64,000 bases of DNA, taken from positions 32,001 to 96,000 of the IMG/VR virus record IMGVR_UViG_3300034284_000578; one strand, 5' to 3'. Positions 42,709-59,047 of this stretch are shown here, in pieces. The notes below the pieces were generated by a model. That model saw nothing but the letters and a program-made list of their open reading frames with translations. It made no database searches and had not been told where the DNA came from. The DNA is from a virus. The translations under genes and the position numbers were made by a program. Numbering within the stretch: the first letter of the stretch is position 1; each line of letters opens with the position of its first letter.

Positions 42709-43533
42709 ATGGCAAAACCTTCAACAAGGGAACAACTTAAAGATTATTGTCTAAGACGACTCGGTTATCCTGTTGTACAAATCAACGTGGATGATTCGCA
42801 AATAGAGGATCGTGTAGACGATGCTTTACAGTTTTTTGCCGAATACCATTTTGATGGTGTAGAGAGAGTTTATTTAAGAAAACAAGTCACTCAGCAAGAC
42901 ATAGAGCGGGGTTATATAGATTTAACCCAACCAACTTTGGCTGCAACTGACGATGGTATAGAAATTAAAGCAGCACCCGCATTAGACCCAGATGGTAATT
43001 CAATAATTAGTGTAATTCGTTGCTTTCAATTATTTGATACTTTGGGTGGTTTGGGTATGTTTGATGCAAAGTATCAAATCGCTTTAAATGACTTATACGG
43101 GTTAAGAACCAACACATATGGTGACTCGTTAATTGGGTATAACATAACAAGAAGTCATATGCAAATGCTTCAGGATATGTTGACCCCCGAGAAGATGATT
43201 GAGTTTAGCCGTGTCACAAACAGAATTTATGTGGAAACAAATTGGTCAGAAAAAATGACTAAGGGTGATTACTTGGTATTTGAGGCATATAAAATTCTTG
43301 ATCCTTCGTTGTATCCAGAAATCTATAATGATCGTTTATTAAAGATGTACTTGACTGCTTTAATTAAGCAACAATGGGGATTGAATTTATCGAAGTTTAG
43401 CGGTATGAGTTTACCGGGTGGTGTTTCATTTAATGGTGCTAATATGGCATCTGAAGCAAAATCAGAAGTTGAAAAAATAGAAAACGAAATTCAAGCCAAA
43501 TACGAACTCCCACCACAAGGATTTATAGGATAA
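42709..43533 (+). CDS. gp13: Neck protein
   Basis: MAKPSTREQLKDYCLRRLGYPVVQINVDDSQIEDRVDDALQFF.EYHFDG, ALIKQQWG.NL.KF.G..LPGGV. Confidence 0.96.
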   Translation: MAKPSTREQLKDYCLRRLGYPVVQINVDDSQIEDRVDDALQFFAEYHFDGVERVYLRKQVTQQDIERGYIDLTQPTLAATDDGIEIKAAPALDPDGNSIISVIRCFQLFDTLGGLGMFDAKYQIALNDLYGLRTNTYGDSLIGYNITRSHMQMLQDMLTPEKMIEFSRVTNRIYVETNWSEKMTKGDYLVFEAYKILDPSLYPEIYNDRLLKMYLTALIKQQWGLNLSKFSGMSLPGGVSFNGANMASEAKSEVEKIENEIQAKYELPPQGFIG

Positions 43534-44920: not shown

Positions 44921-45088
44921 ATGGCAAAGAAATTAGTAAACATTCATATAGAACCAGTAGTATATTTAAAGGACACCAATGATGATTATGTCCTAGATAC
45001 TAATGGCGATAAAATTGAATTAAAGTCTGGAGTACAAGTAGTTCCAAGTGATGACTACGATATAAAAGAAACAATCACAGAATATTAA
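44921..45088 (+). CDS. 55-aa ORF resembling the detached C-terminal tail of gp15; absent from the ORF track
   Basis: MAKKLVNIHIEPVVYLKDTNDDYVLDTNGDKIELKSGVQVVPSDDYDIKETITEY*; fills the gp15-gp16 gap; P.DDY...ETITE resembles gp15 C-termini. Confidence 0.6.
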   Translation: MAKKLVNIHIEPVVYLKDTNDDYVLDTNGDKIELKSGVQVVPSDDYDIKETITEY

Positions 45089-45098
45089 TGGATACATT

Positions 45099-45554
45099 AT
45101 GTCATTTGATGAACTGGAAAAACAATTTAATATAGAACCAACCCCGCAACCAGAAGTCCCACAATTACGCAAAGCAACAGAAATTACTGTTCAAAAGGAC
45201 GATCTGGATAAAGATTATCTCACGGTAAGAGATAATTTAAAAGAACTAATAAACAAAGGTACATCTGCTATAGATGGTATTCTGAATTTAGCATCGGAAA
45301 CAGAACAACCAAGAGCATATGAAGTTCTTGCACAATTAATTAAAACTGTTGCTGAGACGAATAAAGATCTGTTGGATATGCACAACAAAATGAAGGTCAT
45401 TAAGGGAGAACCTCAAGCCAATACTCCCAATTCTGTAACAACCAACAACTCCATATTTGTTGGTAGCACAGCAGATCTTCAAAAACTGCTCCGTGGAAAA
45501 ATAAAAGAAATTGAGAAGTTAGAAAATAATGGCGATATTATAGATGCAGAATAA
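45099..45554 (+). CDS. gp16: Terminase small subunit
   Basis: DY..VRDNL..LI.KG..AIDGIL..A...EQPRAYEV..QLIK, TNNSIFVGSTADLQKLL. Confidence 0.95.
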   Translation: MSFDELEKQFNIEPTPQPEVPQLRKATEITVQKDDLDKDYLTVRDNLKELINKGTSAIDGILNLASETEQPRAYEVLAQLIKTVAETNKDLLDMHNKMKVIKGEPQANTPNSVTTNNSIFVGSTADLQKLLRGKIKEIEKLENNGDIIDAE

Positions 45555-47166
45555 AGAAAAAACATATCTTGGAAATCCAAATCTTAAGCGAGCAAATGTA
45601 AACGTTTCTTTTACTCCCGAACAAGTAGAAGAATATGTTAAATGCTCTCAAGATCCGATTTACTTTATTAAAAACTATGTCAAGATTGTAAGTCTGGACA
45701 AAGGACTTATCAATTTTAATATGTTTGATTTCCAAGAATTGTTTGTTGAAACTATTAATGAAAATAGATTCACAATAGGCAAAATGCCTCGTCAGTGTGG
45801 TAAGTCAACTACTCTGGTTGCTTATATTCTTTGGTATATTCTTTTTAATCCTACCAGTAATGTTGCTATTCTTGCGAATAAACAAACTGTAGCAAAGTTG
45901 CACATGGATAGATTGAAGGTTGCATACGAATACCTCCCAAAGTGGCTGCAACAAGGTATTAAAGAATGGAATAAAATGAGCATAGAACTGGAAAACGGTT
46001 CTAAAATTATTGCTGCTGCTACCTCTGCTTCTGCTATCCGTGGTGGATCTTTTAATCTCATCATGTTGGACGAGTTTGCTCACGTTCCCGAAAACATTGC
46101 AAATGATTTCTATACCTCTGTGTTTCCAACAATTACTTCTGGTAAGAGTACCAAATTAGTAATAATTTCCACACCAAATGGTTTGAATTTATTCTATAAG
46201 ATTTGGGTAGATTCTGCGGAACACCGAAACGACTTTAAGAATGTAGAAATTCATTGGAGTCAAGTACCGGGTAGAGATCAGGCTTGGCGGGAACAAGAAA
46301 TCCGCAACTTGGGTTCTGAAGACAAGTTCCGAACAGAACACGAATGCGATTTCATTGGTTCTACAAATACACTTATTAGTGCAAATAAATTAAAGACTTT
46401 GGTATTCCGCAATCCAATTTATAAAAATGACGATGGATTGAAAGTTTATGAAAAACCAAAAGAGAAGCATAGTTATTTGACTTTGGTTGATACCTCTAGA
46501 GGACAAGGATTAGACTATAGTGCATTTTGTGTACTTGATATAACTGAGATGCCCTATAAGGTTGTTGCTGTGTTTAAAAATAACATGATTTCTCCTATGG
46601 TATATCCCAATATTATTATGAATACTTCTAGGGAATACAATGAAGCATTTATTTTAGTAGAAATTAATGATATTGGCGGACAAGTTGCTGATATTTTGTA
46701 TAAAGAATTGGAATATGAAAATGTTCTAATATCTTCGGTACGGGGAAGAAAGGGTCAGACTTTAGATGGTGGGTTTGGTAATTCGGATACCCAGTTGGGT
46801 GTACGCACCACAAAGGTTGTAAAGCGTCTAGGATGCTCCGTATTGAAGAGTATGATAGAGAGCGACAAACTGATACTAAACGATATCGATATCATGCGGG
46901 AACTTGTTACCTTTATTTCAAAAAATAATTCATATGAAGCAGATACTGGCAGCAATGACGATCTGATCATGTGCTTGGTTCTTTTTGGTTGGTTGAGTAC
47001 ACAAACTTATTTTAAAGATTTGACAGATTTGGATATAAGAAAGACTCTATTTCAAAAGCAAATTGATGCGATTGAGGAAGAAATTATGCCTTTTGGTTTC
47101 CTAAGTAACGTGGATTATGGGGATGATGATGGGTTTGGTGGTGAATTTGGCAATACTATTTTGTAA
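45544..47166 (+). CDS. gp17: Terminase large subunit
   Basis: YLGNPNLK, Walker A PRQCGKST, Walker B LIMLDEFAH, STPNG, nuclease VDTSRGQGLDYS and DDLIMCLV. Confidence 0.98.
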   Translation: MQNKEKTYLGNPNLKRANVNVSFTPEQVEEYVKCSQDPIYFIKNYVKIVSLDKGLINFNMFDFQELFVETINENRFTIGKMPRQCGKSTTLVAYILWYILFNPTSNVAILANKQTVAKLHMDRLKVAYEYLPKWLQQGIKEWNKMSIELENGSKIIAAATSASAIRGGSFNLIMLDEFAHVPENIANDFYTSVFPTITSGKSTKLVIISTPNGLNLFYKIWVDSAEHRNDFKNVEIHWSQVPGRDQAWREQEIRNLGSEDKFRTEHECDFIGSTNTLISANKLKTLVFRNPIYKNDDGLKVYEKPKEKHSYLTLVDTSRGQGLDYSAFCVLDITEMPYKVVAVFKNNMISPMVYPNIIMNTSREYNEAFILVEINDIGGQVADILYKELEYENVLISSVRGRKGQTLDGGFGNSDTQLGVRTTKVVKRLGCSVLKSMIESDKLILNDIDIMRELVTFISKNNSYEADTGSNDDLIMCLVLFGWLSTQTYFKDLTDLDIRKTLFQKQIDAIEEEIMPFGFLSNVDYGDDDGFGGEFGNTIL

Positions 47167-47255
47167 AAATCGAAACACCATAAAATTATACATATTCCTA
47201 GCAAATAGTATTTTCTAATTATAGAAATAACACACGGCGTCTAGAAGGAGAAACA

Positions 47256-49082
47256 ATGGCAATTCAAATTAGCCCAGGCGTAAATGTAACAGAAAAAGAT
47301 GTCACACTTTTGGTGCCAGCAATCGCCACCACACCAGCAGGTATGATTGGCTTGTTCCAATGGGGACCAGGCAACGAACCAGTGACAATTACGAGCGAAA
47401 AAGAACTTTCAGAAGTATTTTATAAGCCAGCAAAAGCATCAGGCGTAATGACCGATGCCACCAAATACAACAGGTGGTGGTGGTCTGCTGCCAATTTCTT
47501 GTCTTACGGTAACAATATTAAAATTGTAAGATTTATTAACGATAGTGCTGGTTCATTTACCGCAACCTCAGGAACTGCTGCGGTTGCAGGACATAATCTT
47601 TGCGGATTGACATCATTTAGAGCATATACCCCAGTAGTTGGAAATGGATTCTGGGGAGCAAAGTATCCAGGCGAACTCGGCAACAGCATCAAGGTAGTTG
47701 TTTTAGATTACTATGCTGCTGAAACATATGATGCCGATACAGACGGAAACGCCAATCAATATATCGACTACATTGGTAATTTTGATGGTTTGCCAGGAAC
47801 ATCCCCTTGGGCAGAAACAGTAACCGGAGCAGAAATTAAAGACGAGATTCACGTTCTTGTAATTGATGCTGATGGTAAAATTTCTGGTACTGCTGGTACA
47901 ATTCTTGAAAAATTTGCATACCTTTCAAAGGCATCAAACGCAGTAAATCAAAACGGAACAACTAATTATTATAAAGATGTTATTAACAATGAATCAAAGT
48001 ATGTTTGGTCATTATATCATTTAGATAACGCAAGTGCTGCAAATAATTCATCAAATGTAAGTGCATTTGGTGCTGTAAGTTCCACTGGTACTACACCGTG
48101 GGGAACCGCCGTAACAACTACTACATCCGCCTTTAAAGTAGTTAAAACTGGTGAAAATCTTGTTGTTACTATGCTCTACGGTGGATTGGTTGGAAATACA
48201 CCAAATGATAACGATATCGCAGAAGCATTTAACACATACATGGGTGATCCAGAAATTATCGATGTTTCAATGTTCATTACCGGACCACTTGGTAAAACAG
48301 CGGCTTATCGTGTAACAGAAATAGCAGAAACAAGAAAAGATGTTGTGGCATTCGTGTCCCCAACACCAACAAATGGTTTCAATCAAACACCAAGTGCATA
48401 TTTGAATGACATCATCACATTTAGAACAAATGGAGATTCCACTTCATACGGTGTAGCCGATACTGGTTACAAATTGCAATACGACAATTATAACGACGAA
48501 TATGTTTATATTCCTCTAAATGCAGATATTGCAGGATTGTGCGCTCGTACAGACACAACAAACGATCCTTGGTTCTCTCCAGCCGGATTAAACCGTGGTG
48601 GAATTAACAGAGTAATCAAACTTCCTTTCAATCCAAATCAAGCACAACGCGATGATTTGTATAAGATTGGAATGAATCCTGTAGTTTCATTCCCCGGAAT
48701 TGGTCCTGTTCTTTACGGAGACAAGACTCTCTTAAGTAGACCATCTGCCTTTGACAGAATCAATGTTCGCAGATTGTTCATAATTCTTGAGAAATCAATT
48801 GCAACTGCCGCCAAGTTCCAACTCTTTGAATTCAACGATGAGTTTACAAGAGCACAATTTGTAAACTTGGTAACTCCATTCCTCAGAAATGTTCTTGGAA
48901 GAAGAGGTATCACCGATTTCCGTGTAGTTTGTGATGAAACAAACAATACAGCACAAGTAATCGACTCAAACAACTTTGTAGCAGATATCTATATCAAACC
49001 AAACAAATCAATCAACTTCATTCAACTCAACTTCATTGCTACACCAACTGGTTTGAGCTTTGAAGAGGTCGTTGGAGCCTAA
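47256..49082 (+). CDS. gp18: Tail sheath protein
   Basis: ISPGVNVTEKD, FQWGP, AKYPGELGN, PWFSPAGLNRG, SAFDRINVRRLF, FEFNDEFTR, IKPNKSINFIQLNF. Confidence 0.98.
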   Translation: MAIQISPGVNVTEKDVTLLVPAIATTPAGMIGLFQWGPGNEPVTITSEKELSEVFYKPAKASGVMTDATKYNRWWWSAANFLSYGNNIKIVRFINDSAGSFTATSGTAAVAGHNLCGLTSFRAYTPVVGNGFWGAKYPGELGNSIKVVVLDYYAAETYDADTDGNANQYIDYIGNFDGLPGTSPWAETVTGAEIKDEIHVLVIDADGKISGTAGTILEKFAYLSKASNAVNQNGTTNYYKDVINNESKYVWSLYHLDNASAANNSSNVSAFGAVSSTGTTPWGTAVTTTTSAFKVVKTGENLVVTMLYGGLVGNTPNDNDIAEAFNTYMGDPEIIDVSMFITGPLGKTAAYRVTEIAETRKDVVAFVSPTPTNGFNQTPSAYLNDIITFRTNGDSTSYGVADTGYKLQYDNYNDEYVYIPLNADIAGLCARTDTTNDPWFSPAGLNRGGINRVIKLPFNPNQAQRDDLYKIGMNPVVSFPGIGPVLYGDKTLLSRPSAFDRINVRRLFIILEKSIATAAKFQLFEFNDEFTRAQFVNLVTPFLRNVLGRRGITDFRVVCDETNNTAQVIDSNNFVADIYIKPNKSINFIQLNFIATPTGLSFEEVVGA

Positions 49083-49100
49083 TCGAAGAGGGAGCAATAA

Positions 49101-49646
49101 ATGGACATTAGCAAGTTTACATCTAAATTCGATGGCGGAGCAAGATCAAATCTGTTCCAATTCAGAGTCAGTAATTTACCATCAGGCATTCCTGCTTTCA
49201 ATGCGGACGATCAAATCATCCACGTTAAAAGCATTCAATTGCCAGAAACAACAGTTGGTGAAATTCCTGTAAATCACATGGGAAGAATTTACAAATTCCC
49301 AGGCGATAGAGTTTATAATGACGTATCACTTACTATCTTGAGTGATGGTAGTGATATGCGCGTAAGACATTTCTTCGAAGCATGGAACCATGTTTGGAAT
49401 CGTCATTTTGCAAACGTAGGATTGTTGCCAAATGCTGAAAACTTGAACGCTGTAGTTGAATTAATTCAATTGGATCGCGGTCACAACCCAATCAGAACAT
49501 ATAAACTACAAAAAGCATGGTGCAGTGATGTCTCTGCCGTAGATTTGTCACACGACAACAATGACGCTTTAGTTGAATTTACAGTAACATTGAAGTACCA
49601 CTTCTTCGAAGTAGACGGTAAGAACGGTCTTCACTTAAGACGTTAA
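49101..49646 (+). CDS. gp19: Tail tube protein
   Basis: GGARSNLF, LPETTVGEIPV..GR..KFPGDR, FEAW, QLDR, VEFTVTL.Y. Confidence 0.95.
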   Translation: MDISKFTSKFDGGARSNLFQFRVSNLPSGIPAFNADDQIIHVKSIQLPETTVGEIPVNHMGRIYKFPGDRVYNDVSLTILSDGSDMRVRHFFEAWNHVWNRHFANVGLLPNAENLNAVVELIQLDRGHNPIRTYKLQKAWCSDVSAVDLSHDNNDALVEFTVTLKYHFFEVDGKNGLHLRR

Positions 49647-49677
49647 CCTACCTATATACTCGTGAAGGAGTTTTATA

Positions 49678-51315
49678 ATGGCATTTGATATATTCGGTTT
49701 TACTTTTGGTAGAACTAAAGAGCAACAACAATCTGTTCCCTCAGTAATTCCCCCGGCTATGGACGATGGCGCATCCTTCGTCCAAGCCGGTGGTTTTCAA
49801 GGTTGGTATGTAGATCTTGATGGTACTGTCAAGTCTGATGTAGATTTGGTTAAAAAGTATCGTGAAATGAGTCTCCATGCTGAAGTTGAAATGGGCATAG
49901 AAGATATTGTGAATGAAGTAATAACAGAAGATGCTTCCGGTACATTTATTAAATTAAATATAGACAAAGTAGATTCTAGTATTATTCCAGAAGAAGTTAA
50001 AAAAGTTTTATATGACGAATTTAAACACATTTTATTCTTATTGGATTTCAATAGAAAGTGTTATGAGATTGTTCGTCGCTGGTATATTGATGGTAGGTTA
50101 TATTACCACATTATTCTGGAAGATGATCCACGACAAGGAATAAAAGAAGTACGACAAGTAGATCCTCTTAGAATTAAAAAAGTAAGAGAAATAAAGAAAA
50201 AACAAAAAGTAAATGGTGTTGATGTTATTGATGGTGTAGAAGAATATTATTTGTACACCGTTCAAGAAAGATTTAACATGTATGATACCACTCAAGGTAT
50301 CAAGTTATCTCCCGACTCCATTAATTACTGCCACTCAGGTTTATTTGATTACGGCACAAAAAGAGTAGTAAGTTATCTTCATAAAGCAATTAAACCATTG
50401 AACCAATTAAGAATGGTCGAAGATGCTACCGTAATTTATCGTTGGTCAAGAGCACCAGAGCGTAGAATATTCTATATCGACGTTGGTTCTTTGCCAAAAA
50501 ATAAAGCAGAGCAGTATCTGAGAGACATCATGTTGCGTTATCGCAATAAGATTACATACGATGCCGGTACTGGCGAAATCCGCGACGACAGAAAACACTT
50601 GAGTATGTTGGAAGATTATTGGCTCCCCCGTCGTGAAGGTGGTAAGGGAACAGAAATTCAAACACTATCCGGTGGTCAAAATCTAGGCGAAATGGAAGAT
50701 GTAAAATACTTCCAAAAGAAACTGTTTAGAAGTTTGAATATACCCATGTCACGTTTAGAAGCGGACAATGGATTTAACATGGGTAGAGCAGCAGATATTA
50801 GCAGAGACGAATTAAAGTTTGCTAAATTTATTTCTCGCCTTCGCTCTCGGTTCTCAGAGTTGTTCTTAAACTTTATGAGAACTCAATTGATTGCAAAAGG
50901 AATAGTAGATATTGACGAATGGAATAAGATTTGTCAATATATCCGATTTGACTATTCTACAGATTCAATGTTCTTAGAATCTAAGCAATCTGAAGTGCTA
51001 AAAGACAGAATGGCAATTTTGAGAGAAGTTTCCGATTATTCTGGTAAGTATTTCTCGGAAGAATGGATTAGAAAGAATATTCTTCATCAAACAGACGAAG
51101 ACATTCAATTGATTGATTCTCAAATTGAACAAGAAAAAATGATACAAGAACAAAAGCAAATGGAAGAACAAATGCGCGCCGAGCAATTGGCAGCACAAAC
51201 TATGGGTGTTCCTGGCGGTGCGCCTGGAGCGGGAGCATCCGCACCAAGTCAACCAACAGCAGTTGCACCACAGCAATCAACGGGAGTAGATTACGATGCC
51301 AGCAGCCTTTTATGA
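49678..51315 (+). CDS. gp20: Portal vertex protein
   Basis: YREMS.H.EV, RRWYIDGR, SYLHKAIKP.NQLRM.EDA.VIYR.SRAPERRIFYIDVG.LPK.KAEQYL, MLEDYWLPRREGGKGTEI. Confidence 0.98.
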   Translation: MAFDIFGFTFGRTKEQQQSVPSVIPPAMDDGASFVQAGGFQGWYVDLDGTVKSDVDLVKKYREMSLHAEVEMGIEDIVNEVITEDASGTFIKLNIDKVDSSIIPEEVKKVLYDEFKHILFLLDFNRKCYEIVRRWYIDGRLYYHIILEDDPRQGIKEVRQVDPLRIKKVREIKKKQKVNGVDVIDGVEEYYLYTVQERFNMYDTTQGIKLSPDSINYCHSGLFDYGTKRVVSYLHKAIKPLNQLRMVEDATVIYRWSRAPERRIFYIDVGSLPKNKAEQYLRDIMLRYRNKITYDAGTGEIRDDRKHLSMLEDYWLPRREGGKGTEIQTLSGGQNLGEMEDVKYFQKKLFRSLNIPMSRLEADNGFNMGRAADISRDELKFAKFISRLRSRFSELFLNFMRTQLIAKGIVDIDEWNKICQYIRFDYSTDSMFLESKQSEVLKDRMAILREVSDYSGKYFSEEWIRKNILHQTDEDIQLIDSQIEQEKMIQEQKQMEEQMRAEQLAAQTMGVPGGAPGAGASAPSQPTAVAPQQSTGVDYDASSLL

Positions 51316-51895
51316 ATTTAATATAGAACAAGGTTCTGATTTTATAACATCAGTAAAGGCGATGAAACCCGGCGGTGGTATTTTTCGCTTTATTCCAAAA
51401 GCAAATCAAACTGTTTGGACTGGTACAACTTTAAACATTGATGTGCCTGAAGAAATTAAGTTGTTTAAATCAACAGAATCTGCTGCATTCGGTTGGATGA
51501 AAGGTATACCATCTAGTACATTTTTGACGGTAAGAAGTAAAGTAAAAGATAATAAAGGTGTTTTACAAATACAAGGAACTAGAGTCTATACATTTAATGG
51601 TTCTACCAAAAGAATAACAACTACTAGTTTTAGTCCAGAGGCCTCAACCAAAGAACTAATAGAATTTACATTAGTTCCAGACAATACCGAATATAATTTA
51701 ACTATGAGAATGCCTGCTGGCACAACCTGTGGAACAAATGGTAACGCACCAACAGGAACAACATGTTACAGTGGAAAATATCTTTATGATATTGAACTGG
51801 AATATAAAATTGGAGATGAGGGAGAAACACCAACCCCATTTGTTATTCGTTTATTGCAAGGAAGAATGACATTTAATCCTAACGTAACCACGTAA
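51296..51895 (+). CDS. BppU-like / fibre-adaptor protein inserted after the portal
   Basis: MPAAFYEFNIEQGSDF N-terminus and GKYLYDIEL...RLLQG.MTFNPNVT C-terminus, a common phage virion adaptor pattern; overlaps the gp20 end by 20 nt. Confidence 0.6.
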   Translation: MPAAFYEFNIEQGSDFITSVKAMKPGGGIFRFIPKANQTVWTGTTLNIDVPEEIKLFKSTESAAFGWMKGIPSSTFLTVRSKVKDNKGVLQIQGTRVYTFNGSTKRITTTSFSPEASTKELIEFTLVPDNTEYNLTMRMPAGTTCGTNGNAPTGTTCYSGKYLYDIELEYKIGDEGETPTPFVIRLLQGRMTFNPNVTT

Positions 51896-51896
51896 A

Positions 51897-54215
51897 ATGG
51901 CAACTAATTTTAAGATATACGTCAGTAATTTTCCACAAAAGACCGCCTATAGAAGAGGCGCAACTATAGACGTATACCAAATAAATAAAATCATTTACAC
52001 CCAAGCACAAGAAATAGATAATTTAAACTTAGCAGGTGAATTGTATGAAGATGCTATAGGAATTAAAGGAGATTCTTGTACTAGTGGTTTAATTGGTTGC
52101 GATGAAGCATTCGTAGCACCAAATCCAAATGAATGTAGTGGTGGAGAAAGAGGACCAGCAGGACCAGCAGGTCCACAAGGACCTGCCGGCCCAACAGGAC
52201 CCCAAGGACCTGCTGGTGGTGGTGCTAGAATATTTTGCGGTTATCTTCAAGGACCACCAGCACCACCGGCTGGAGAAATTTCAATTGAATGTTTAAAAAG
52301 CGCAACTGGTTATGTTGTAAATAAAAATGGTGCAGCACTTGGTGGTACAAATCCATTTAGTCCCGGTTCTGGATCTAATTTAAATAATTTTCAACATAAC
52401 TTTGGTACTACTGGTGGAACTCAGTATGTCATAGGGACTAATGGTAGTCCAGTACAAGGAAATAATTGTAGTAGCCCTTCTCCCGCACAAGATAGATTAG
52501 ATGAATTTTTTGATCCACCAAAATATATTCACACTCCGGTATTTAAAGGTTCAAATGTTAATGAAACTTGTTATTCATCAACTCAATGGACATTTGGTGA
52601 ATATTTAAACGCATTTGGTCAAGGATCAGCAGAACTTGGTAGTGGTTTGAGTAATTTTTGTCGAAATGGGGCAAATGCAGCAAACAATAGTGCATCTGGA
52701 TTAATATTCGTCCCAACACAATCAATATACGGTGGTGGTAACGCTACTAGAATGGAAGATTGGTGGGAAATATTAAAGGGAGCAGATGGTAACGGTGGTA
52801 ATGGACTATATGACTCATTAGTAGACAATAATCCAGATTGTGGTCCAGAAGGACCATCATCATCACCACCAATAGCAGATCAGGGTGGTGTATTAAATAG
52901 TCAATGCACTGAAACCGGTGGAACTCCTCCTTCTTCTACACCATTAGAGGGAAATGACAATCCCTGCAATGGTGGATGCAATAATCCTATTGCAAATTGT
53001 TCAGAGTTAACAGATGGTGATATTTTTATCGACGCAACTAACGGAGTAATGTATTTCTACTCAGGGGGAGCGTGGTCAAGTTCCGGTGTCCCTTTAGGGG
53101 GTGAGTCTGCTTGCGATGGACAAGCAGACGGAGGACCAGATTTTACATCAGCAGATGAGTGCCCACAAATAACTTGTTTTTGCCCACCGTGTGAAGAATG
53201 TCCAGATCCATGTCCAGATCCATGCACCGGATGCACCAGTGGTTGTATAACAAATCAATGCTGTCCAGATGGTGAACCTAGTTTAATACTTTGCGGTCCG
53301 CCAAATACAGGGGGTTGTCCACCTGGACAATGCCCGAGACCAGATGGATGCGGTTCGTGCGGAAGTTGTGATGGAAGCACCAATCAATTCAATAGTGCTA
53401 TGGTATTTCCAGATGAAATGATTACAGAAAATGCTAGTGTTTTAAATACACTACTAAACACTTTAAATGCAAGTAATCTTGACTATTATGTTTCTGGAAC
53501 TATGGCACTGGAAGCATACTTAAATGGAAGTGGATTCCCTGGCAAACAAAGAATGGGTGATTTTGATTTTGTTATTGATAGAAAAGATCTTAAAACATTT
53601 AATAATTTAGTTCAAGATAATTTTTATTTAGATATTATTACTGTAGAGGCACCATTCATGTCAAGAGATGATGCAATGCCTCAGTTGTCCTTGATAAGTA
53701 AAACTAATAATTACGCTCCTTATTTTGATCCCATAACTATACCTGTTATTTTATCGGGTTCTGAAGAAATATGGTCAGGAGTAACTATTCCTAAACCAAG
53801 TGAATTTGGACAAAAAAGTTTTAAAACTATAAATTATGGAGGAAAAAGAAACTTATCATTTAAGTGTATTCCTCTATACTATCCTATATTACAAAAAGTA
53901 AGAGCTGGCCGTCCAAAAGATATAATAGACTTAAAGGTTTTATATTTTGCTGGTTTAATAACTGAAGATGTTTTATCTGAATTTACTCCAACTGATTTGG
54001 AAAAATACAACGAAATAGTATCTTACTTTGGAGATGGTTCTAATGCTGCATTTTTTGCAAGAAAAAACTACACTATTGATCAATTACAAAATTTGGCTAA
54101 TAATTACAATAATTTTAAATATGCACCAGCATTTAAAAAGAAATGGACATGGGTTCCAGCATATGGTGGATGGGTAGACCCAGAGGACATAATAACGCCC
54201 GGTTCCGGTTCTTAA
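51897..54215 (+). CDS. Collagen-like, Cys-rich fibre protein with C-terminal nucleotidyltransferase-like domain
   Basis: (G-X-Y)8 at 52143-52214; DGDIFIDATNG.MY.Y..GAW; Cys-rich linker; YYVSGTMAL..Y......RMGDFDFVI and K.RAGRPKDIIDL NTase motifs. Confidence 0.7.
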   Translation: MATNFKIYVSNFPQKTAYRRGATIDVYQINKIIYTQAQEIDNLNLAGELYEDAIGIKGDSCTSGLIGCDEAFVAPNPNECSGGERGPAGPAGPQGPAGPTGPQGPAGGGARIFCGYLQGPPAPPAGEISIECLKSATGYVVNKNGAALGGTNPFSPGSGSNLNNFQHNFGTTGGTQYVIGTNGSPVQGNNCSSPSPAQDRLDEFFDPPKYIHTPVFKGSNVNETCYSSTQWTFGEYLNAFGQGSAELGSGLSNFCRNGANAANNSASGLIFVPTQSIYGGGNATRMEDWWEILKGADGNGGNGLYDSLVDNNPDCGPEGPSSSPPIADQGGVLNSQCTETGGTPPSSTPLEGNDNPCNGGCNNPIANCSELTDGDIFIDATNGVMYFYSGGAWSSSGVPLGGESACDGQADGGPDFTSADECPQITCFCPPCEECPDPCPDPCTGCTSGCITNQCCPDGEPSLILCGPPNTGGCPPGQCPRPDGCGSCGSCDGSTNQFNSAMVFPDEMITENASVLNTLLNTLNASNLDYYVSGTMALEAYLNGSGFPGKQRMGDFDFVIDRKDLKTFNNLVQDNFYLDIITVEAPFMSRDDAMPQLSLISKTNNYAPYFDPITIPVILSGSEEIWSGVTIPKPSEFGQKSFKTINYGGKRNLSFKCIPLYYPILQKVRAGRPKDIIDLKVLYFAGLITEDVLSEFTPTDLEKYNEIVSYFGDGSNAAFFARKNYTIDQLQNLANNYNNFKYAPAFKKKWTWVPAYGGWVDPEDIITPGSGS

Positions 54216-54232
54216 ACTTAAATAAACTAAAG

Positions 54233-54240
54233 TATAAATA
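54233..54240 (+). promoter_or_regulatory. T4-type late promoter TATAAATA (gp67/gp21)
   Basis: Exact T4 late consensus in intergenic DNA; gp55 sigma is encoded in the window. Confidence 0.85.
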
Positions 54241-54260
54241 ATGAAAAGAGGATTATACCG

Positions 54261-54536
54261 ATGTCTACAGAAAAAATTATAGATTCTTTATTTGATAACA
54301 ACTTGGAGCAATTCCGCAAGCAAGTCCATGCTGCTTTATTTGTAAAAACCGGAGAATATATGAACTCCGCAAAACAAGTAGTCGCTGGCGCCATGATGAA
54401 TCCTCCAGAAGAAGTACAAGAGGAAAAAAAGAAACTATCTAAAGAGCAATTAGCAGCAGTAAGAGCACCACATGATAAAATTACCCGTGGAGACATTATT
54501 GCTCTTGCTCAAAAGAACGCAAAGAAAAAGGGGTAA
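54261..54536 (+). CDS. gp67: Prohead core protein gp67-like
   Basis: IIDSLF.NN...F.......L..K....M...K..VA pattern; directly upstream of gp21. Confidence 0.6.
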   Translation: MSTEKIIDSLFDNNLEQFRKQVHAALFVKTGEYMNSAKQVVAGAMMNPPEEVQEEKKKLSKEQLAAVRAPHDKITRGDIIALAQKNAKKKG

Positions 54537-54541
54537 TATAG

Positions 54542-55189
54542 ATGAAACTTATTACTGAAACAAGACAACAAGACATTCAATATGTTTCTGAAGCCGCAGA
54601 GGGTGGTAAGAAGTCTTACTTCATTCGTGGTGTTTTCGCAGAGTCCAATAAAGTAAACAAGAATCAACGATTTTACGAAGGACCAGTCATGGAGATGGCT
54701 GTACAAACATACAATGATACCTTTGTAAAAAATAGTCGCGCTTTGGGTGAACTTGGACATCCAGAAGGACCAACTGTTAATTTAGAAAGAGTATGCCACA
54801 TGATCAAAGATCTTCATGTGGAGGGTAGTCAAGTAATGGGTAATGCAAAGATCATGGACACCCCATATGGTAGAATTGTACAAAACCTTATTGATGAAGG
54901 TGCTAAACTTGGAGTGTCTACCCGTGGTATGGGTTCATTGGCTGAGCGCAATGGAGTCAATTATGTGCAAAAAGACTTCATGCTTGCCGCTGTCGATGTA
55001 GTTGCAGATCCCTCTGCACCAAACGCATTCGTAGACGGCATCATGGAAGGTAAAGAATGGGTTTGGGACAATGGTGTTTTCAAACCAACAATCATTGAGA
55101 ATTACAAAAAACAAATTGAAAAAGCAGGATCAAGAAACTTGGAAGAAGCCAAATTGAAAGTATTCCGCGATTTCTTATCTAAATTGTGA
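54542..55189 (+). CDS. gp21: Prohead protease
   Basis: MKLITE, N.N.R.Y, RALGELGHP.GPTVNL.RV.H, LGVSTRGMGSL, DVVADPSAPNAFV.GIMEGKEW. Confidence 0.98.
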   Translation: MKLITETRQQDIQYVSEAAEGGKKSYFIRGVFAESNKVNKNQRFYEGPVMEMAVQTYNDTFVKNSRALGELGHPEGPTVNLERVCHMIKDLHVEGSQVMGNAKIMDTPYGRIVQNLIDEGAKLGVSTRGMGSLAERNGVNYVQKDFMLAAVDVVADPSAPNAFVDGIMEGKEWVWDNGVFKPTIIENYKKQIEKAGSRNLEEAKLKVFRDFLSKL

Positions 55190-55193
55190 AATA

Positions 55194-55201
55194 TATAAAT
55201 A
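55194..55201 (+). promoter_or_regulatory. Late promoter TATAAATA (gp22)
   Basis: Exact consensus upstream of AAGGAG SD and ATG 55232. Confidence 0.85.
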
Positions 55202-55231
55202 ACTGAGCGACAAATCAAGGAGATTTAACAA

Positions 55232-56446
55232 ATGGACCCCAAGAAAATTGCAGAAGAAATCGTAAAAGATTTATTCGATACATATGAACTCGTCGAAGAA
55301 AAAGAAGAAAAGGACGAGGAAGAAGAAGGCGAAGAAGAAGAAGAAGCCGGTGAGGAAGAAGAAGGCGAAGAAGAAGCCGGTGAGGAAGAAGAAGGCGAAG
55401 AAGAAGGTGAAGAAGAGGCAGAAGACAAGGCTCCAGTTGCTAAAGCAGTTGGTAATGCCATGAAGGGTTCTGCTACTACATCTGCTGCCGCTTCAATCTC
55501 CCTTAAAGGTCAATTACCACAACCAACAAAAGGTTCTGGACATGTCCACGATGCCTTGGGTGGTGGTGTAAAGGATGCACATGGCGGTGGTGAGCAAATC
55601 ATCCAACCAACAGGTGGAAATCCCGGTGCATTGGCTGCATCTCTCAACATGAAGCCATCATTCACTTCTCCACAAGCACCACAAATGACCAGTGAGCAAT
55701 TAGCCTCTGATATTACAGCAATCTTTGGTTCACAAGAACTATCTGAAGATTTTGTAAAGAATGCTGCTTCAATTTATGAAGCCGCAGTTGCTTCAAAGGT
55801 TGAAACAATTGCAGAAGCATTAGTCGAACAATTTGAAGAAAAGTTGGTAGAAGAAGTAGAAACTGTAAAGTCTGCTTTGGTAGAACAACTTGATAATTAT
55901 TTGGCTTATGTTGTCCAAGAATGGGCAAAAGAAAATGCAGTTGCCATTGAAAATGGTTTAAGAACAGAAATTGCAGAAGACTTCATCAATGGTTTGAAGA
56001 ATCTTTTTGCGGAATCTTATGTTGAAATTCCAGAAGAAAAAGTAAATCTGTTTGATGAACTTTCGGAAGCGGTCGAAACTCTTGAAGGTAGAATAAACGA
56101 AGAGATTGAAAAGAACGTAGTTCTCAATCAAGAAATTAGTTTACTAACCGCTCAAAGAGTATTTGCTGAAGAAACAAGAGGATTGACTGTTCTTCAAGCA
56201 GAAAAAGCAAGAGAGATTGCAGAAAATCTCGAATACTCTGGAGAAGAAGATTTCCGCAGTAAAGTAAAGACCTTGGTTGAAGGTGTTGTTTCTGGAGCCA
56301 AAAAGGTTGCACCAAAGAATGTTCAAAAGGTAAATGAACAAATTACACTTTTGGAACAAGCAACTGAAGATGAGCCAGAGCAAGAAACACTCTCTCCACT
56401 CATGGAACTTTATTCAAACACAATTAACAGAACACTAAAATCTTAA
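55232..56446 (+). CDS. gp22: Prohead core scaffold protein
   Basis: LSEDF...A..IYEAAV..KV, LDNYL.YVV.EW..EN..AIE.GLRTEI.EDFI.GLK.LF.E.Y..IPEEK; acidic N-terminus. Confidence 0.95.
   Translation: MDPKKIAEEIVKDLFDTYELVEEKEEKDEEEEGEEEEEAGEEEEGEEEAGEEEEGEEEGEEEAEDKAPVAKAVGNAMKGSATTSAAASISLKGQLPQPTKGSGHVHDALGGGVKDAHGGGEQIIQPTGGNPGALAASLNMKPSFTSPQAPQMTSEQLASDITAIFGSQELSEDFVKNAASIYEAAVASKVETIAEALVEQFEEKLVEEVETVKSALVEQLDNYLAYVVQEWAKENAVAIENGLRTEIAEDFINGLKNLFAESYVEIPEEKVNLFDELSEAVETLEGRINEEIEKNVVLNQEISLLTAQRVFAEETRGLTVLQAEKAREIAENLEYSGEEDFRSKVKTLVEGVVSGAKKVAPKNVQKVNEQITLLEQATEDEPEQETLSPLMELYSNTINRTLKS
55337..55396 (+). repeat. 30-bp tandem duplication (EEEAGEEEEG x2) in the poly-Glu tract of gp22
   Basis: GAAGAAGAAGCCGGTGAGGAAGAAGAAGGC repeated exactly twice, with degenerate flanking copies. 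Confidence 0.9.
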
Positions 56447-56463
56447 TTCAAAAATTGAGAAAT

Positions 56464-56471
56464 TATAAATA
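56464..56471 (+). promoter_or_regulatory. Late promoter TATAAATA (gp23)
   Basis: Exact consensus upstream of AAGGAG SD and ATG 56507. Confidence 0.85.
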
Positions 56472-56506
56472 AACTCAGACAAAAAGGTTTAAAGGAGCAA
56501 AGAAAA

Positions 56507-57970
56507 ATGGACCCTAATCGTCAAATGATCACAGAATCTGCCCGCAAAAAGTGGCAACCAATCCTTGAGCACAAGGCATTGCCAGAAATCAAGGACAGTT
56601 ATAAAAAGACTGTAACAACAATCCTCTTGGAGAACCAAGAGCGCGCACTCCGCGAATCATACCAAGGTATTGCCGGTACAGGACTCGGTAACATTGGTGG
56701 GTTTGAAGCCGGTGCAACCTCAACAACTGGTACTGGTATCGATTCATTCGATCCAATCATGATCAGTTTGGTTCGTCGCGCTATGCCAAATTTGATGGCT
56801 TACGACATCGCTGGTGTTCAACCAATGAACGGCCCAACCGGCTTGATCTTCGCAATGAAGACAAAGTATCAAAACGCTGGTACAGGAACAATTGGTGCCC
56901 GCGCTGGTAATGCCAGTGAAGCACTGTTCAAGGAAGCCAACACAAGTTGGTCCGGTGAAACTGGTGCTGCTGGTGACATGGGAGATATCTTCCAAGATGA
57001 CGCCGGTTCAACCGATGGACGCTTCGAAGCCGGTCGTGGATTTGCCACATCTAAGGGTGAAAAACTCGGAGATGGTACAAATAACTTTAACGAAATGTCT
57101 TTCACAATCGAAAAGACAGCCGTTACAGCCAAGACTCGCGCCCTCAAGGCAGAGTACACAACAGAACTCGCTCAAGACCTCAAGGCCGTTCACGGACTTG
57201 ACGCTGAGACAGAGTTGGCTAACATCCTCTCAACCGAAATCATGTTTGAAATCAACCGCGAGTTGGTTCGTCAAATCTATGATGTCGCTAAGTTGGGTTG
57301 CCAACAAGCCGACCTCGCCGGTAAGGCTTCAGGTGGTGGTTTGAATGGTGCCGCAGGTGGTGGTACATATAACCTCGAACTCGACTCCGATGGTCGTTGG
57401 AGTGCTGAAAAGTTCCGTGGTTTGACCTTCCAAATCGAGCGCGAGTGCAACGTAGTAGGTGCTGAGACTCGTCGTGGTAAGGGTAACTTTATCATCACAA
57501 GTCCAGACGTTGCTGCTGCCCTCAGTATGAGTGGTTTGCTCGACTTCTCTCCAGCCTTCAGTGGTGCTCTTAACACAGACGTTAATGGCAACACCTTCGC
57601 TGGTACACTCCACGGTGGACGTATCAAGGTTTACATTGATCCATATTCAATGCCAACCCACACAGAAACCTTCTCACCAATCAATTTCGTATGCGTAGGA
57701 TATAAGGGAACAAGTCCATACGACGCTGGTCTCTTCTACTGCCCATACGTTCCATTGCAAATGGTAAGAGCCGTTGATACAGGTACATTCCAACCAAAGA
57801 TTGGTTTCAAGACCCGTTATGGTATGGTAAGTAACCCATACGTTCTCAATGCAAGCAGTCTCCCAGACGCTGAAACATTGACACGTAGACGTAATCAATA
57901 CTACCGCATCTTCCGCGTAGATAACCTACACGGTAACGACGCCACATACAACCCAACAACCGCTAACTAA
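56507..57970 (+). CDS. gp23: Major capsid protein
   Basis: KW.PILEH, LLENQE, FDP..ISLVRRAMPNL.AYD..GVQPM.GPTGLIFAM, TAKTRALKAEY..ELAQDLKAVHGLDAE.ELANILS.EI, DAGLFYCPYVPL, FQPKIGFKTRYG. Confidence 0.99.
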   Translation: MDPNRQMITESARKKWQPILEHKALPEIKDSYKKTVTTILLENQERALRESYQGIAGTGLGNIGGFEAGATSTTGTGIDSFDPIMISLVRRAMPNLMAYDIAGVQPMNGPTGLIFAMKTKYQNAGTGTIGARAGNASEALFKEANTSWSGETGAAGDMGDIFQDDAGSTDGRFEAGRGFATSKGEKLGDGTNNFNEMSFTIEKTAVTAKTRALKAEYTTELAQDLKAVHGLDAETELANILSTEIMFEINRELVRQIYDVAKLGCQQADLAGKASGGGLNGAAGGGTYNLELDSDGRWSAEKFRGLTFQIERECNVVGAETRRGKGNFIITSPDVAAALSMSGLLDFSPAFSGALNTDVNGNTFAGTLHGGRIKVYIDPYSMPTHTETFSPINFVCVGYKGTSPYDAGLFYCPYVPLQMVRAVDTGTFQPKIGFKTRYGMVSNPYVLNASSLPDAETLTRRRNQYYRIFRVDNLHGNDATYNPTTAN

Positions 57971-57993
57971 TATTAGCGCGTAAACCAACGAGT

Positions 57994-58025
57994 AGAGGGT
58001 TCCGAAAGGAACCCTTTATTCTTTT
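57994..58025 (+). terminator. Rho-independent terminator after gp23
   Basis: AGAGGGTTCC-GAAA-GGAACCCTTT stem with GNRA loop, followed by ATTCTTTT. Confidence 0.88.
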
Positions 58026-58037
58026 ATAGATACTATT

Positions 58038-58565
58038 ATGAGCAATCTAATTACAAACGCAATACAAAGACAGCCAAAGTCGATCAACCCAATGCAGTTG
58101 AACGAATATAAAATGGTATTGCATAGAACTCCTCATATAGTTTATTTCTGTCAGTCAATCAACCTACCCGGTATCCAATCTAGTCCTATATCGCAGCCTA
58201 GTCCCTTTGCCACCGATATAAAGAGGACTCCAGGCAAGGTAACGCATGATGATTTAAATGTTAAATTCATTGTAAATGAAGATATGTCTAATTGGCTGGA
58301 ATTGTATAATTGGTTGAGAACGATAACTCCAATCGATACATTCAATAATCAAGTTCAAGAAACACAAAGATTTTCTGATATTTCAATAATAGTAATGAAC
58401 AGCAAGTCTTTAGGTTTATTGCATTTCACATATAGAGATTGTTTTCCTTTGGCAATATCTGGATTAGATCTAGACAGTACTGTTAGTGATATTAATCCTG
58501 CGATTGCTGGAGTAACATTTGCATACAGCGGGTTTACAGTAGAAACCCTCAGACAGAACATTTAA
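58038..58565 (+). CDS. gp3: Tail completion / tube terminator
   Basis: YFCQSINLPGI, DLNVKFIVNEDMSNWLELYNWL, F...DCFP..ISG, VTFAY. Confidence 0.9.
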   Translation: MSNLITNAIQRQPKSINPMQLNEYKMVLHRTPHIVYFCQSINLPGIQSSPISQPSPFATDIKRTPGKVTHDDLNVKFIVNEDMSNWLELYNWLRTITPIDTFNNQVQETQRFSDISIIVMNSKSLGLLHFTYRDCFPLAISGLDLDSTVSDINPAIAGVTFAYSGFTVETLRQNI

Positions 58566-58593
58566 TTGCTTTTTACTTGATGTGTGATATACT
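58566..58593 (+). promoter_or_regulatory. sigma70-type (early/middle) promoter of uvsY
   Basis: TTGCTT-N16-TATACT with extended -10 TG; AGGAG SD and ATG 58610 downstream. Confidence 0.7.
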
Positions 58594-58609
58594 CCCAATA
58601 GGAGATTTT

Positions 58610-59047
58610 ATGCTATTTGATGATATTAAAAAGATGGCGGATGTTGATTTGAAGTTCAATGAATCTGAACTGGATACGGAGTCTCTACGCATTCCCCAGT
58701 TACATGGTAAATATTTAAATATGCTGTACGATGAGAAACTTGTACTACGCAAATGGAAAAATGAACTCGGTCAACTTTTAAAACTAAAATGGGAATACTA
58801 CACTGGCAAAATGTCAGAGGAACAACTAAAGGAACTCAATTGGGAGCCATTTCAGTTGCGTATTCTAAAACAAGATGTTGAATTGTACATGGAATCTGAT
58901 GCAGATCTAAATCAAAAAAGAGATAGAGTATTTGTACAAGAAGAAAAAGTAAACTACTTAGAATCAATTATCAAAATGATTTCTAATCGTCAATACCACA
59001 TACGAGACGCCATTACTTGGCGTAAGTTCATAAATGGAGAATCATAA
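58610..59047 (+). CDS. uvsY: Recombination mediator UvsY (start revised to ATG 58610)
   Basis: D..ESLRIPQLH.KYL, KWEYYTGK, PFQLRILKQD...Y..SD.D, YLESIIK.I.NR.YHIRDAI.W.KF..G. Confidence 0.92.
   Translation: MLFDDIKKMADVDLKFNESELDTESLRIPQLHGKYLNMLYDEKLVLRKWKNELGQLLKLKWEYYTGKMSEEQLKELNWEPFQLRILKQDVELYMESDADLNQKRDRVFVQEEKVNYLESIIKMISNRQYHIRDAITWRKFINGES

Follow-up and report, generated by a model that had tools for sequence, protein, structure and literature searches.

The window analysed here, a 64,000-nucleotide (nt) stretch covering positions 32,001 to 96,000 of the IMG/VR viral record IMGVR_UViG_3300034284_000578 (a 108.6-kb contig with an estimated completeness of about 60%), comes from an uncultured marine myovirus of the T4-like type. 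Between the genes for its portal protein gp20 and a small gp67-like prohead protein lie two open reading frames (ORFs), ORF1 and ORF2. ORF2 encodes a collagen-stalked, Cys-rich, fibre-like protein whose C-terminal domain is predicted to adopt the nucleotidyltransferase (NTase) fold of the Pol-beta superfamily. The ORF1/ORF2 pair is one state of a variable slot that occurs throughout this clade of phages, and in this slot the distal cassette of ORF2 has been exchanged. Based on the current evidence, the favoured reading is that ORF2 is an external fibre with an exchangeable, NTase-derived host-recognition tip, to which a probability of roughly 40% is given. This reading is tentative, and several other functions have to be weighed against it.

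The fusion protein and its nucleotidyltransferase-fold domain

The two genes and the parts of ORF2, in amino acids (aa), are as follows.

51296-51895, + strand: ORF1, 199 aa, predicted Ig-like beta-sandwich, candidate fibre anchor (T5 p132/LtfC-like)
51897-54215, + strand: ORF2, 772 aa, collagen-stalked Cys-rich fibre-like protein with a C-terminal domain modelled as an NTase
51897-52142, + strand: ORF2 aa 1-82, clade-conserved N-terminal domain, presumed attachment end (33-67% identity in all ORF1-linked loci)
52143-52223, + strand: ORF2 aa 83-109, collagen-like run of nine G-X-Y triplets (regular-expression count)
52224-53156, + strand: ORF2 aa 110-420, middle domain (52-87% identical in aligned relatives)
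53010-53114, + strand: ORF2 aa 372-406, near-invariant block T-DGDIFIDATNGVMYFYSGGAWS...PLGGES-C (about 30 of 35 positions invariant in homologues otherwise about 50% identical)
53157-53393, + strand: ORF2 aa 421-499, Cys/Pro-rich linker (17 Cys in 79 aa)
53394-54029, + strand: ORF2 aa 500-711, predicted NTase-fold core with motif residues G534-T535, D555, D557, D579, K602, K667, R672, K674-D675 and D678
54030-54212, + strand: ORF2 aa 712-772, aromatic-rich C-terminal extension (pLDDT 31-45)

The initial annotation of this DNA, made from the sequence alone, had described most of this architecture. The Cys-rich linker and the motifs that it quoted are all present, and the collagen run holds nine triplets where it counted eight. 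The run is uninterrupted, has Pro at most X positions and may form a triple helix, and a G-X-Y stretch of 21-30 residues stands at the equivalent place in relatives. The N-terminal domain before it has six invariant residues (F5, K6, I7, V9, F12 and K15). Cysteine is concentrated upstream of the C-terminal domain, with 31 of the 32 residues falling within aa 1-491. The middle domain found no match in a PDB profile search. Near its end, DGDIFIDATNGVMYFYSGGAW occupies aa 373-393, and the DGDIFIDATNG motif is not repeated in the other large structural proteins of the window.

The collagen-NTase fusion is not an assembly chimera, a possibility that the initial annotation had named as fatal to its proposal, because the loci L012 and L004 and the proteins P0001 and P0002 carry it independently. 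These are also the homologues with the same fusion that it had suggested looking for. Specifically, the L012 contig, assembled from another metagenome, extends from the N-terminal end into the NTase domain, and L004 covers the middle domain, the NTase domain and the sequence on into gp23, while L005 and L006 cover the end of the domain together with the downstream head genes. P0001 (801 aa) and P0002 (802 aa, with a domain 55% identical) were assembled independently and have the full ORF2 architecture. The location of the NTase at the distal end of the stalk is kept down to 41% identity.

Sequence searches with ORF2 and with its C-terminal domain against Pfam, NCBIfam, PADLOC, PHROGs and PDB-sequence profiles, together with phmmer, returned collagen matches only, and the tail-fibre matches in PHROGs are confined to the collagen run. 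No signature of Peptidase_S74 or another fibre chaperone was found in ORF2 with Pfam or PHROG, and tblastn of ORF1, ORF2 and the DUF6734 protein described below gave zero matches among 50,697 cultured-phage records. An exhaustive phmmer search of 1.84 billion representative proteins with the domain gave six matches, of which five are real and one (P0007) is spurious. Neither an alignment-based metagenome scan nor a viral scan seeded with P0003 recovered relatives. At the level of sequence the domain represents a rare, so far unmodelled family.

The structural model is more informative. AlphaFold was run on the domain (the last 273 residues) with a small alignment of seven sequences; the mean pLDDT is 67, most of the core lies between 70 and 91, and the last 60 residues are unmodelled. 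The predicted secondary structure (H6-26, E31-34, H35-45, E58-61, H63-73, E77-83, E96-102, in domain numbering, with H for helix and E for strand) has the alternating helix/strand core of the Pol-beta NTase fold. In a Foldseek search of the PDB the best match was MenT1 (E 7e-6, probability 1.00), followed by MenT3/TglT, TM1012, JHP933, ANT(2'')-Ia and LnuA, and all of the top 33 structural matches were NTase-fold proteins. Features from a protein language model independently group the domain with the AbiEii, DUF6036, Aminoglyc_resit and NTP_transf_5 clusters (scores 0.93-0.95).

The motifs fall on the canonical elements of this fold. V-S-G534-T535, within SGTMAL, corresponds to domain residues 33-36 at the junction of strand 1 and helix 2 (end of E31-34, start of H35-45). 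The second position of this hG[GS] motif is Thr in ORF2 and Ser in P0004, and the Gly is invariant. D555-F-D557-F-V, within GDFDFV, stands at the start of strand 2 (E58-61), with both Asp invariant in all homologues, and the equally invariant D579 (YLDII) lies within strand 3 (E77-83). The Lys/Arg/Lys-Asp/Asp motif, within KVRAGRPKDIIDL at aa 667-679, is placed by the model on two C-terminal helices. G534, D555, D557, D579 and K602 are invariant to about 40% identity, and the Lys/Arg/Asp helix motif is invariant or near-invariant over the same range. The aromatic extension that follows is kept in P0001 and P0002 and missing from P0003. The modelling thus bears out the earlier assignment of the C-terminal domain to the Pol-beta NTases, and we conclude that it is probably an NTase of the MenT / ANT / Lnu / TM1012 branch that looks catalytically competent.

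The more specific suggestion of an AbiEii/MNT-like signature holds only in part. The AbiEii Pfam model (PF08843) does not match the domain at E <= 1 or 10 by hmmscan, nor the genome in a six-frame search at E <= 1; the relation to AbiEii is therefore at the level of the fold only, and the domain is not a demonstrable member of DUF1814. A PADLOC defence search of the domain and a search with PF10706 were also negative, and LicD (PF04991) had no match in a six-frame search of the genome at E <= 0.1.

A variable slot with an exchanged distal cassette

The ORF1 homologue and the ORF2 N-terminus occur together in every related locus that covers this stretch (L007-L024). In each, gp20 is followed by the ORF1 homologue and then by a protein that shares the N-terminal 80 residues and the collagen run of ORF2. 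Four states of the slot can be distinguished by what follows. In the window, L004 and L012 the NTase is fused. In L011 and L013-L016 the stalk ends at about 500 residues and is accompanied by a separate ORF of 322-323 aa. L018-L020 have a 462-aa collagen protein and a 740-aa protein with 36-38 Cys, and L021-L024 have a collagen protein of 529-551 aa and a protein of 1302-1567 aa with about 58 Cys. RCC1 repeats of the beta-propeller type were recognised in the 1302-aa protein of L021 (Pfam WD40_RLD, E 2e-89), with which the 1567-aa protein of L024 aligns over its full length. The pair is thus one state of a clade-wide variable slot with an exchanged distal cassette, rather than the one-off two-gene insert first described. 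Nor is the interval normally empty in relatives, contrary to what had been supposed for T4-like phages: between gp20 and gp21 Pelagibacter phage Mosig has five small ORFs and P-SSM4 has one. As a group, the Cys-rich slot proteins of these more distant relatives of the window (L018-L024) range from 740 to 1567 aa with 36-59 Cys (L021:9304-13209, L024:9309-14009, L020:9001-11220).

The clearest exchange is that between the window and L011. By blastn the two are 96% identical over 45000-53209 and 54219-58678 of the window, and the sequence between differs. Two exchanged segments were delimited in the window.

53210-54218, + strand: exchangeable cassette, ORF2 aa 438-772; L011 has 1218 bp here instead, encoding a Cys-rich tail and a separate DUF6734 ORF
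53360-54376, + strand: block shared with the L004 lineage, 98-100% identical by sliding-window identity on a backbone of about 80%

In L011 the NTase domain is replaced by a Cys-rich knob of 80 residues. The separate ORF matches Pfam DUF6734 (E 7e-38), a mostly viral family with an invariant E-x-F-x-H-x-D-G-D, an N-x-G-x-x-G-G and a late His, which looks enzyme-like. The DUF6734 gene lies at L011:9169-10137, L013:5633-6598 and L014:9157-10125, in siblings 96% identical to the window. Alignment with hhalign showed no relation between this ORF and the NTase. The idea that DUF6734 might be a GT8-like glycosyltransferase found no support, with hhalign against E. coli WaaJ/WaaO giving 0.2% probability and a PDB profile search likewise negative, although the alignments were shallow.

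The near-invariant block around DGDIFIDATNG lies about 100 nt before the left junction of the cassette and presumably serves as the homology anchor for the exchange. Alternatively, this block (DGDIFIDATNGVMYFYSGGAWS...PLGGES) may be a structural nucleus.

The second segment records a recent lateral transfer. The NTase domain, a late promoter and the first part of the gp67-like gene all fall within it, and its near-identity with the L004 lineage stands against a gp21 that has diverged from that lineage with a dS of 0.71 and a dN/dS of 0.05. The NTase block was therefore recently exchanged between lineages. Most of the few changes that have since accumulated alter the protein: between the window and the L004 copy of the domain, there are 13 non-synonymous codon differences and one synonymous (about 648 and 171 sites, respectively), and nearly all differences are non-synonymous when five contigs are compared. 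The 14 variable sites are limited to three parts of the domain, its N-terminal helix, its 83-90 loop and its C-terminal region, and spare every motif residue; the C-terminal extension holds five of them, or seven when counted from domain position 196. Modular exchange combined with unconstrained or diversifying change is typically seen at host-interaction surfaces. A diversity-generating retroelement was considered as the source of these changes and set aside, since they are spread across 800 nt without an evident repeat, although no formal test was made.

The candidate anchor and the expression of the slot

ORF1 has 51 homologues with identities ranging from 35 to 98%, some of them on contigs of 90-150 kb. 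Its model is of high quality (pLDDT 86.7) and shows an Ig-like beta-sandwich. The best Foldseek matches are chains of 137-140 residues from the DT57C baseplate and the T5 tail tip, followed by the Douge baseplate (7.8), the P74-26 neck (7.2), the 80alpha baseplate (6.7), the R4C portal-adaptor complex (6.3) and the Sf14 neck (6.0). The assignment of chains in the PDB entries to p132 and BppU is presumptive. At the sequence level, ORF1 matches phrog_1084 (E 1e-4), and Pfam LtfC only at E 0.097. A 112-residue ORF1 relative in L026 matches both phrog_1084 (E 1e-18) and phrog_3304, 'L-shaped tail fiber protein assembly' (E 6e-15).

The relatives of ORF1 in L025 and L026 are flanked by baseplate-hub/short-fibre-like genes and by collagen-rich fibre genes. 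In these loci, which belong to a different phage type (L025:6761-8866, L026:6965-9733), the 112-aa ORF1-family protein follows a short-tail-fibre-like protein of 1277-1678 aa, and the ORF1-family gene is succeeded by an ORF of 196-197 aa and collagen-rich fibre genes with 75-192 G-X-Y residues, in a baseplate-hub context.

ORF1 is thus a reasonable candidate for a fibre-anchoring adaptor. The initial annotation had called it BppU-like; an adaptor remains a reasonable reading, given the Ig-like fold and the PHROG links, although the family closest to ORF1 is that of the T5 collar proteins and not specifically BppU. There are differences from T5 p132 and DT57C LtfC, which act with the L-shaped tail fibre (PDB 7qg9, 8hqz), in that ORF1 has an extra insertion of about 85 residues and is encoded in a T4-like myovirus beside the portal gene rather than a tail-tip gene. 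Co-folding of ORF1 with ORF2 aa 1-82 scored 0.30 against a mark of 0.32, which favours neither contact nor its absence.

The surroundings of the slot are those of a T4-like head and tail region.

45544-47166: gp17
47256-49082: gp18
49101-49646: gp19
49678-51315, + strand: gp20 portal, upstream boundary of the slot (Pfam Portal_T4, E 6e-167)
54233-54240, + strand: TATAAATA, T4-type late-promoter consensus, directly 3' of the cassette and directly 5' of the gp67-like gene
54261-54536, + strand: gp67/68-like small prohead ORF, 91 aa, downstream boundary of the slot (phrog_1064 'prohead', E 0.003), kept in all related loci

Coordinates and the Pfam and PHROG matches agree with the placement of ORF1 and ORF2 between gp20 and the gp67-like gene that was reported at the outset. 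With the portals of Pelagibacter phage Mosig and of marine cyanophages the gp20 protein shares about 52% identity, and the gp67-like ORF is followed by gp21 and then by gp22 and gp23. ORF1 overlaps the end of gp20 by 20 nt and the ORF1 stop codon is separated from the start of ORF2 by 1 nt; both genes are translationally coupled to gp20. On the + strand of the window TATAAATA occurs four times (42676, 54233, 55194 and 56464), each copy 20-43 nt 5' of a structural gene (the ORF at 42709, the gp67-like gene, gp22 and gp23). Fewer copies are present than chance would predict, so that it is the placement and not the number that stands out. No copy on this strand of the window lies 5' of ORF1 or ORF2. 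With copies of the motif on either side of the unit, ORF1 and ORF2 are presumably expressed late, within the sheath-tube-portal transcription unit.

Among relatives the gp67-like ORF varies from 84 to 142 aa (window 54261-54536, L004:1954-2367, L013:6634-7026, L024:14053-14469), with four Cys in the longer forms and zero in the short ones. The N-terminus of the gp22 scaffold homologue (55232-56446) is a long Glu/Gly/Ala/Lys run, acidic and of low complexity, about 50 residues in length. Elsewhere on the contig, about 9.7 kb ahead of the window, there is a short Pfam match to Glycos_transf_2 (E 6e-9, within a 205-aa open frame; G000:C1:22117-22302).

Possible functions of the fibre tip

An external location of ORF2 is favoured because of its collagen segment, its extreme Cys content, its fibre-collar-type partner and the binding-type modules that occupy the same slot in relatives. 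ORF1 and ORF2 would then form an accessory fibre module, transcribed late with the sheath, tube and portal genes. ORF1, as a protein of the T5 p132/LtfC type, would anchor the conserved N-terminus of ORF2 to the particle, with the neck/portal vertex and the capsid as candidate sites. ORF2 would trimerise through its short collagen segment and project a Cys-rich stalk, to which disulfides or metal may lend stability outside the cell. The final 335 or so residues, comprising the Cys linker, the NTase-fold domain and the aromatic tail, would act as a self-contained cassette that recombination swaps between phages, with the near-invariant upstream block as the homology anchor. This cassette would be the host-interaction tip, its domain drawn from the MenT / ANT(2'') / Lnu branch, members of which bind sugar-type hydroxyls (ANT, Lnu) or RNA ends (MenT) in the acceptor pocket.

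A difficulty that the initial annotation did not address is that an external tip lacks an NTP donor. Without an NTP supply the NTase domain is favoured as a ligand-recognition tip, which outside the cell would be NTP-free and would bind its ligand only. Since the catalytic set is intact, the domain may have a second activity within the producing cell, where nucleotidylylation of that ligand could, for example, mask receptor precursors or decorate the virion.

The comparison with exchangeable-tip receptor-binding fibres is close in some respects: they too have a conserved proximal part, a recombining distal cassette, a fast-changing tip and lateral transfer. However, the known enzymatic tips are hydrolases, lyases and esterases that need no cofactor, and an NTP-dependent fold at the tip was not found in the literature searches.

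Several points weigh against the proposed binding tip. We know of no NTase-fold receptor-binding domain, and literature searches found none either. The full catalytic set is retained, which argues for an enzyme over a pure binder, and the DUF6734 protein of sibling phages, encoded by an ORF of its own, is easier to reconcile with an accessory enzyme than with a tip. The gene lies in the head module, where T4 encodes internal core proteins. The domain model is of middling confidence (mean pLDDT 67, with the last 60 residues unmodelled), and the 13:1 ratio of substitutions is not significantly above neutrality (binomial p about 0.18) and rejects only strong purifying selection. Finally, the location in the virion, the trimer, the contact between ORF1 and ORF2, ligand binding and any catalysis are all features that we infer.

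Alternatively, the NTase may be active only in the cytoplasm of the phage-making cell, where it would covalently add an NMP or phospho-alcohol to the fibre or another virion part, with DUF6734 as the equivalent in sibling phages. In favour of this, NTP donors are confined to the interior of cells, no catalytic motif has been lost, and the alternative cassette carries a separate enzyme-like ORF with its invariant HxDGD, NxGxxGG and His. This account is nevertheless unlikely, if the least so of the alternatives. A trans-acting enzyme would have no need of the distal-stalk fusion that is kept to 41% identity, and purifying selection is expected of a housekeeping enzyme, yet 13 of the 14 recent differences alter the protein. 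In addition, no donor-synthesis genes were found and the genome record has no match to the LicD model, while DUF6734 has no profile similarity to GT8 and its enzymatic nature is a guess.

It is quite improbable that an active NTase displayed on the external collagen fibre acts on the host itself, an option that the initial annotation had raised in general terms, whether by crossing the envelope in a manner resembling contact-dependent inhibition (CDI) and nucleotidylylating a tRNA or defence protein, or by nucleotidylylating its own receptor. If this were true, it would give viruses a new means of acting on a cell, ahead of DNA injection or independently of it.

A related and still more doubtful idea is that the particle delivers the domain into the next host as a MenT/AbiEii-like toxin that blocks translation or defence, comparable to polymorphic toxins, MuF-toxin fusions and T4 Alt. 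The nearest structures are indeed the MenT tRNA-modifying toxins, the gene adjoins the portal gene in the head module, and the polymorphism of the C-terminal cassette and its fast protein evolution resemble polymorphic toxins. The known examples of virion-borne enzymes that depend on cofactors, Alt, the N4 vRNAP and the MuF fusions (PMC5512222), are injected. In the survey of Iyer et al. (2017; PMC5512222), enzymatic domains were described at the C-termini of phage virion proteins, among them NTases of the RelA/SpoT type joined to MuF, and Pol-beta NTase domains appeared in conjugative-element proteins only. Like the polyvalent and MuF-fusion proteins, ORF2 would be virion-associated, is encoded near the portal and has a variable C-terminal domain of enzymatic type; unlike them, it has no MuF, MPTase or other polyvalent hallmark, and its carrier is a collagen-like fibre (PMC5512222). 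A collagen helix, 31 Cys and an anchor of the external-fibre type are ill-suited to passage through the tail tube, and no MuF or capsid-targeting feature was found.

The resemblance to MenT1, MenT3, MenT4 and AbiEii (DUF1814; PDB 8an4, 6y5u, 6y56) is also incomplete. Motifs I and II of the MenT proteins are present in the ORF2 domain (PMC7450476, PMC10435456). For motifs III and IV, the conserved residues K667...K674-D675...D678 are plausible counterparts, but the motif III Lys and the motif IV Asp are spaced by 8-11 residues rather than the 15-22 of MenT1, MenT3 and MenT4 (PMC10435456). The Ser/Thr two residues before the first Asp is missing, and the domain is acidic (pI 4.7), in contrast to the electropositive tRNA-binding face of the MenT toxins (PMC7450476). 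PF08843, as described above, fails even at E <= 1. MenT and AbiEii proteins stand alone, whereas the ORF2 domain is fused to a collagen-containing, Cys-rich phage fibre. An adjacent antitoxin of the AbiEi/MenA type, or any other immunity gene, is likewise absent: the fused stalk lies upstream and the gp67-like ORF downstream. ANT(2'')-Ia and LnuA (PDB 5cfu, 4fo1) differ in another way, being soluble cytoplasmic resistance enzymes and not parts of structural proteins, and neither matches the domain at the sequence level.

It is highly unlikely that the domain is a pseudo-enzyme that binds no ligand and serves as a C-terminal trimerisation or chaperone domain or a knob, perhaps removed after assembly. 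Many phage fibres need a C-terminal folding domain, the recent substitutions look unconstrained, and the domain can be replaced by the 80-residue Cys-rich knob. Pseudo-enzymes, however, usually lose their catalytic residues, and here the Gly, all three Asp residues and the helix motif of Lys, Arg and Asp stay invariant or nearly so to about 40% identity. No Peptidase_S74 or other chaperone signature was found, and NTases of this branch occur as monomers or dimers rather than trimers (PMC7450476 and PMC10435456 for MenT).

Least probable of all is that ORF1 and ORF2 are soluble, non-structural late proteins, for example an anti-defence enzyme with a repetitive N-terminal region, which would suit a permissive head-operon slot that holds assorted small genes in Mosig and P-SSM4 and would do without the inferred incorporation into the virion, but the collagen triplets, the extreme Cys content, the link to a fibre-collar-type family with relatives in a baseplate/fibre module and the clade-conserved N-terminal architecture point to a structural protein.

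The reading of ORF2 as an external fibre with a swappable NTase-derived tip joins elements that are each familiar. Swappable-tip fibres, NTase toxins and resistance enzymes are well known, but their union in one protein was not found in the literature searched. A full-text search combining NTase, tail fiber, collagen-like and phage returned nothing relevant, in line with the earlier statement that no phage fibre with an NTase fusion had been described. The domain also appears to add a rare, previously unmodelled sequence family to the NTase superfamily. The natural swap in near-identical phages, between an NTase tip and a Cys-rich knob with DUF6734, offers a ready-made comparison of cassette function. 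If the tip only binds, abundant marine myoviruses would have taken up a new fold for recognising their hosts. An active tip would represent either a new form of virion self-modification or a new host-directed enzyme on the exterior of a virus.

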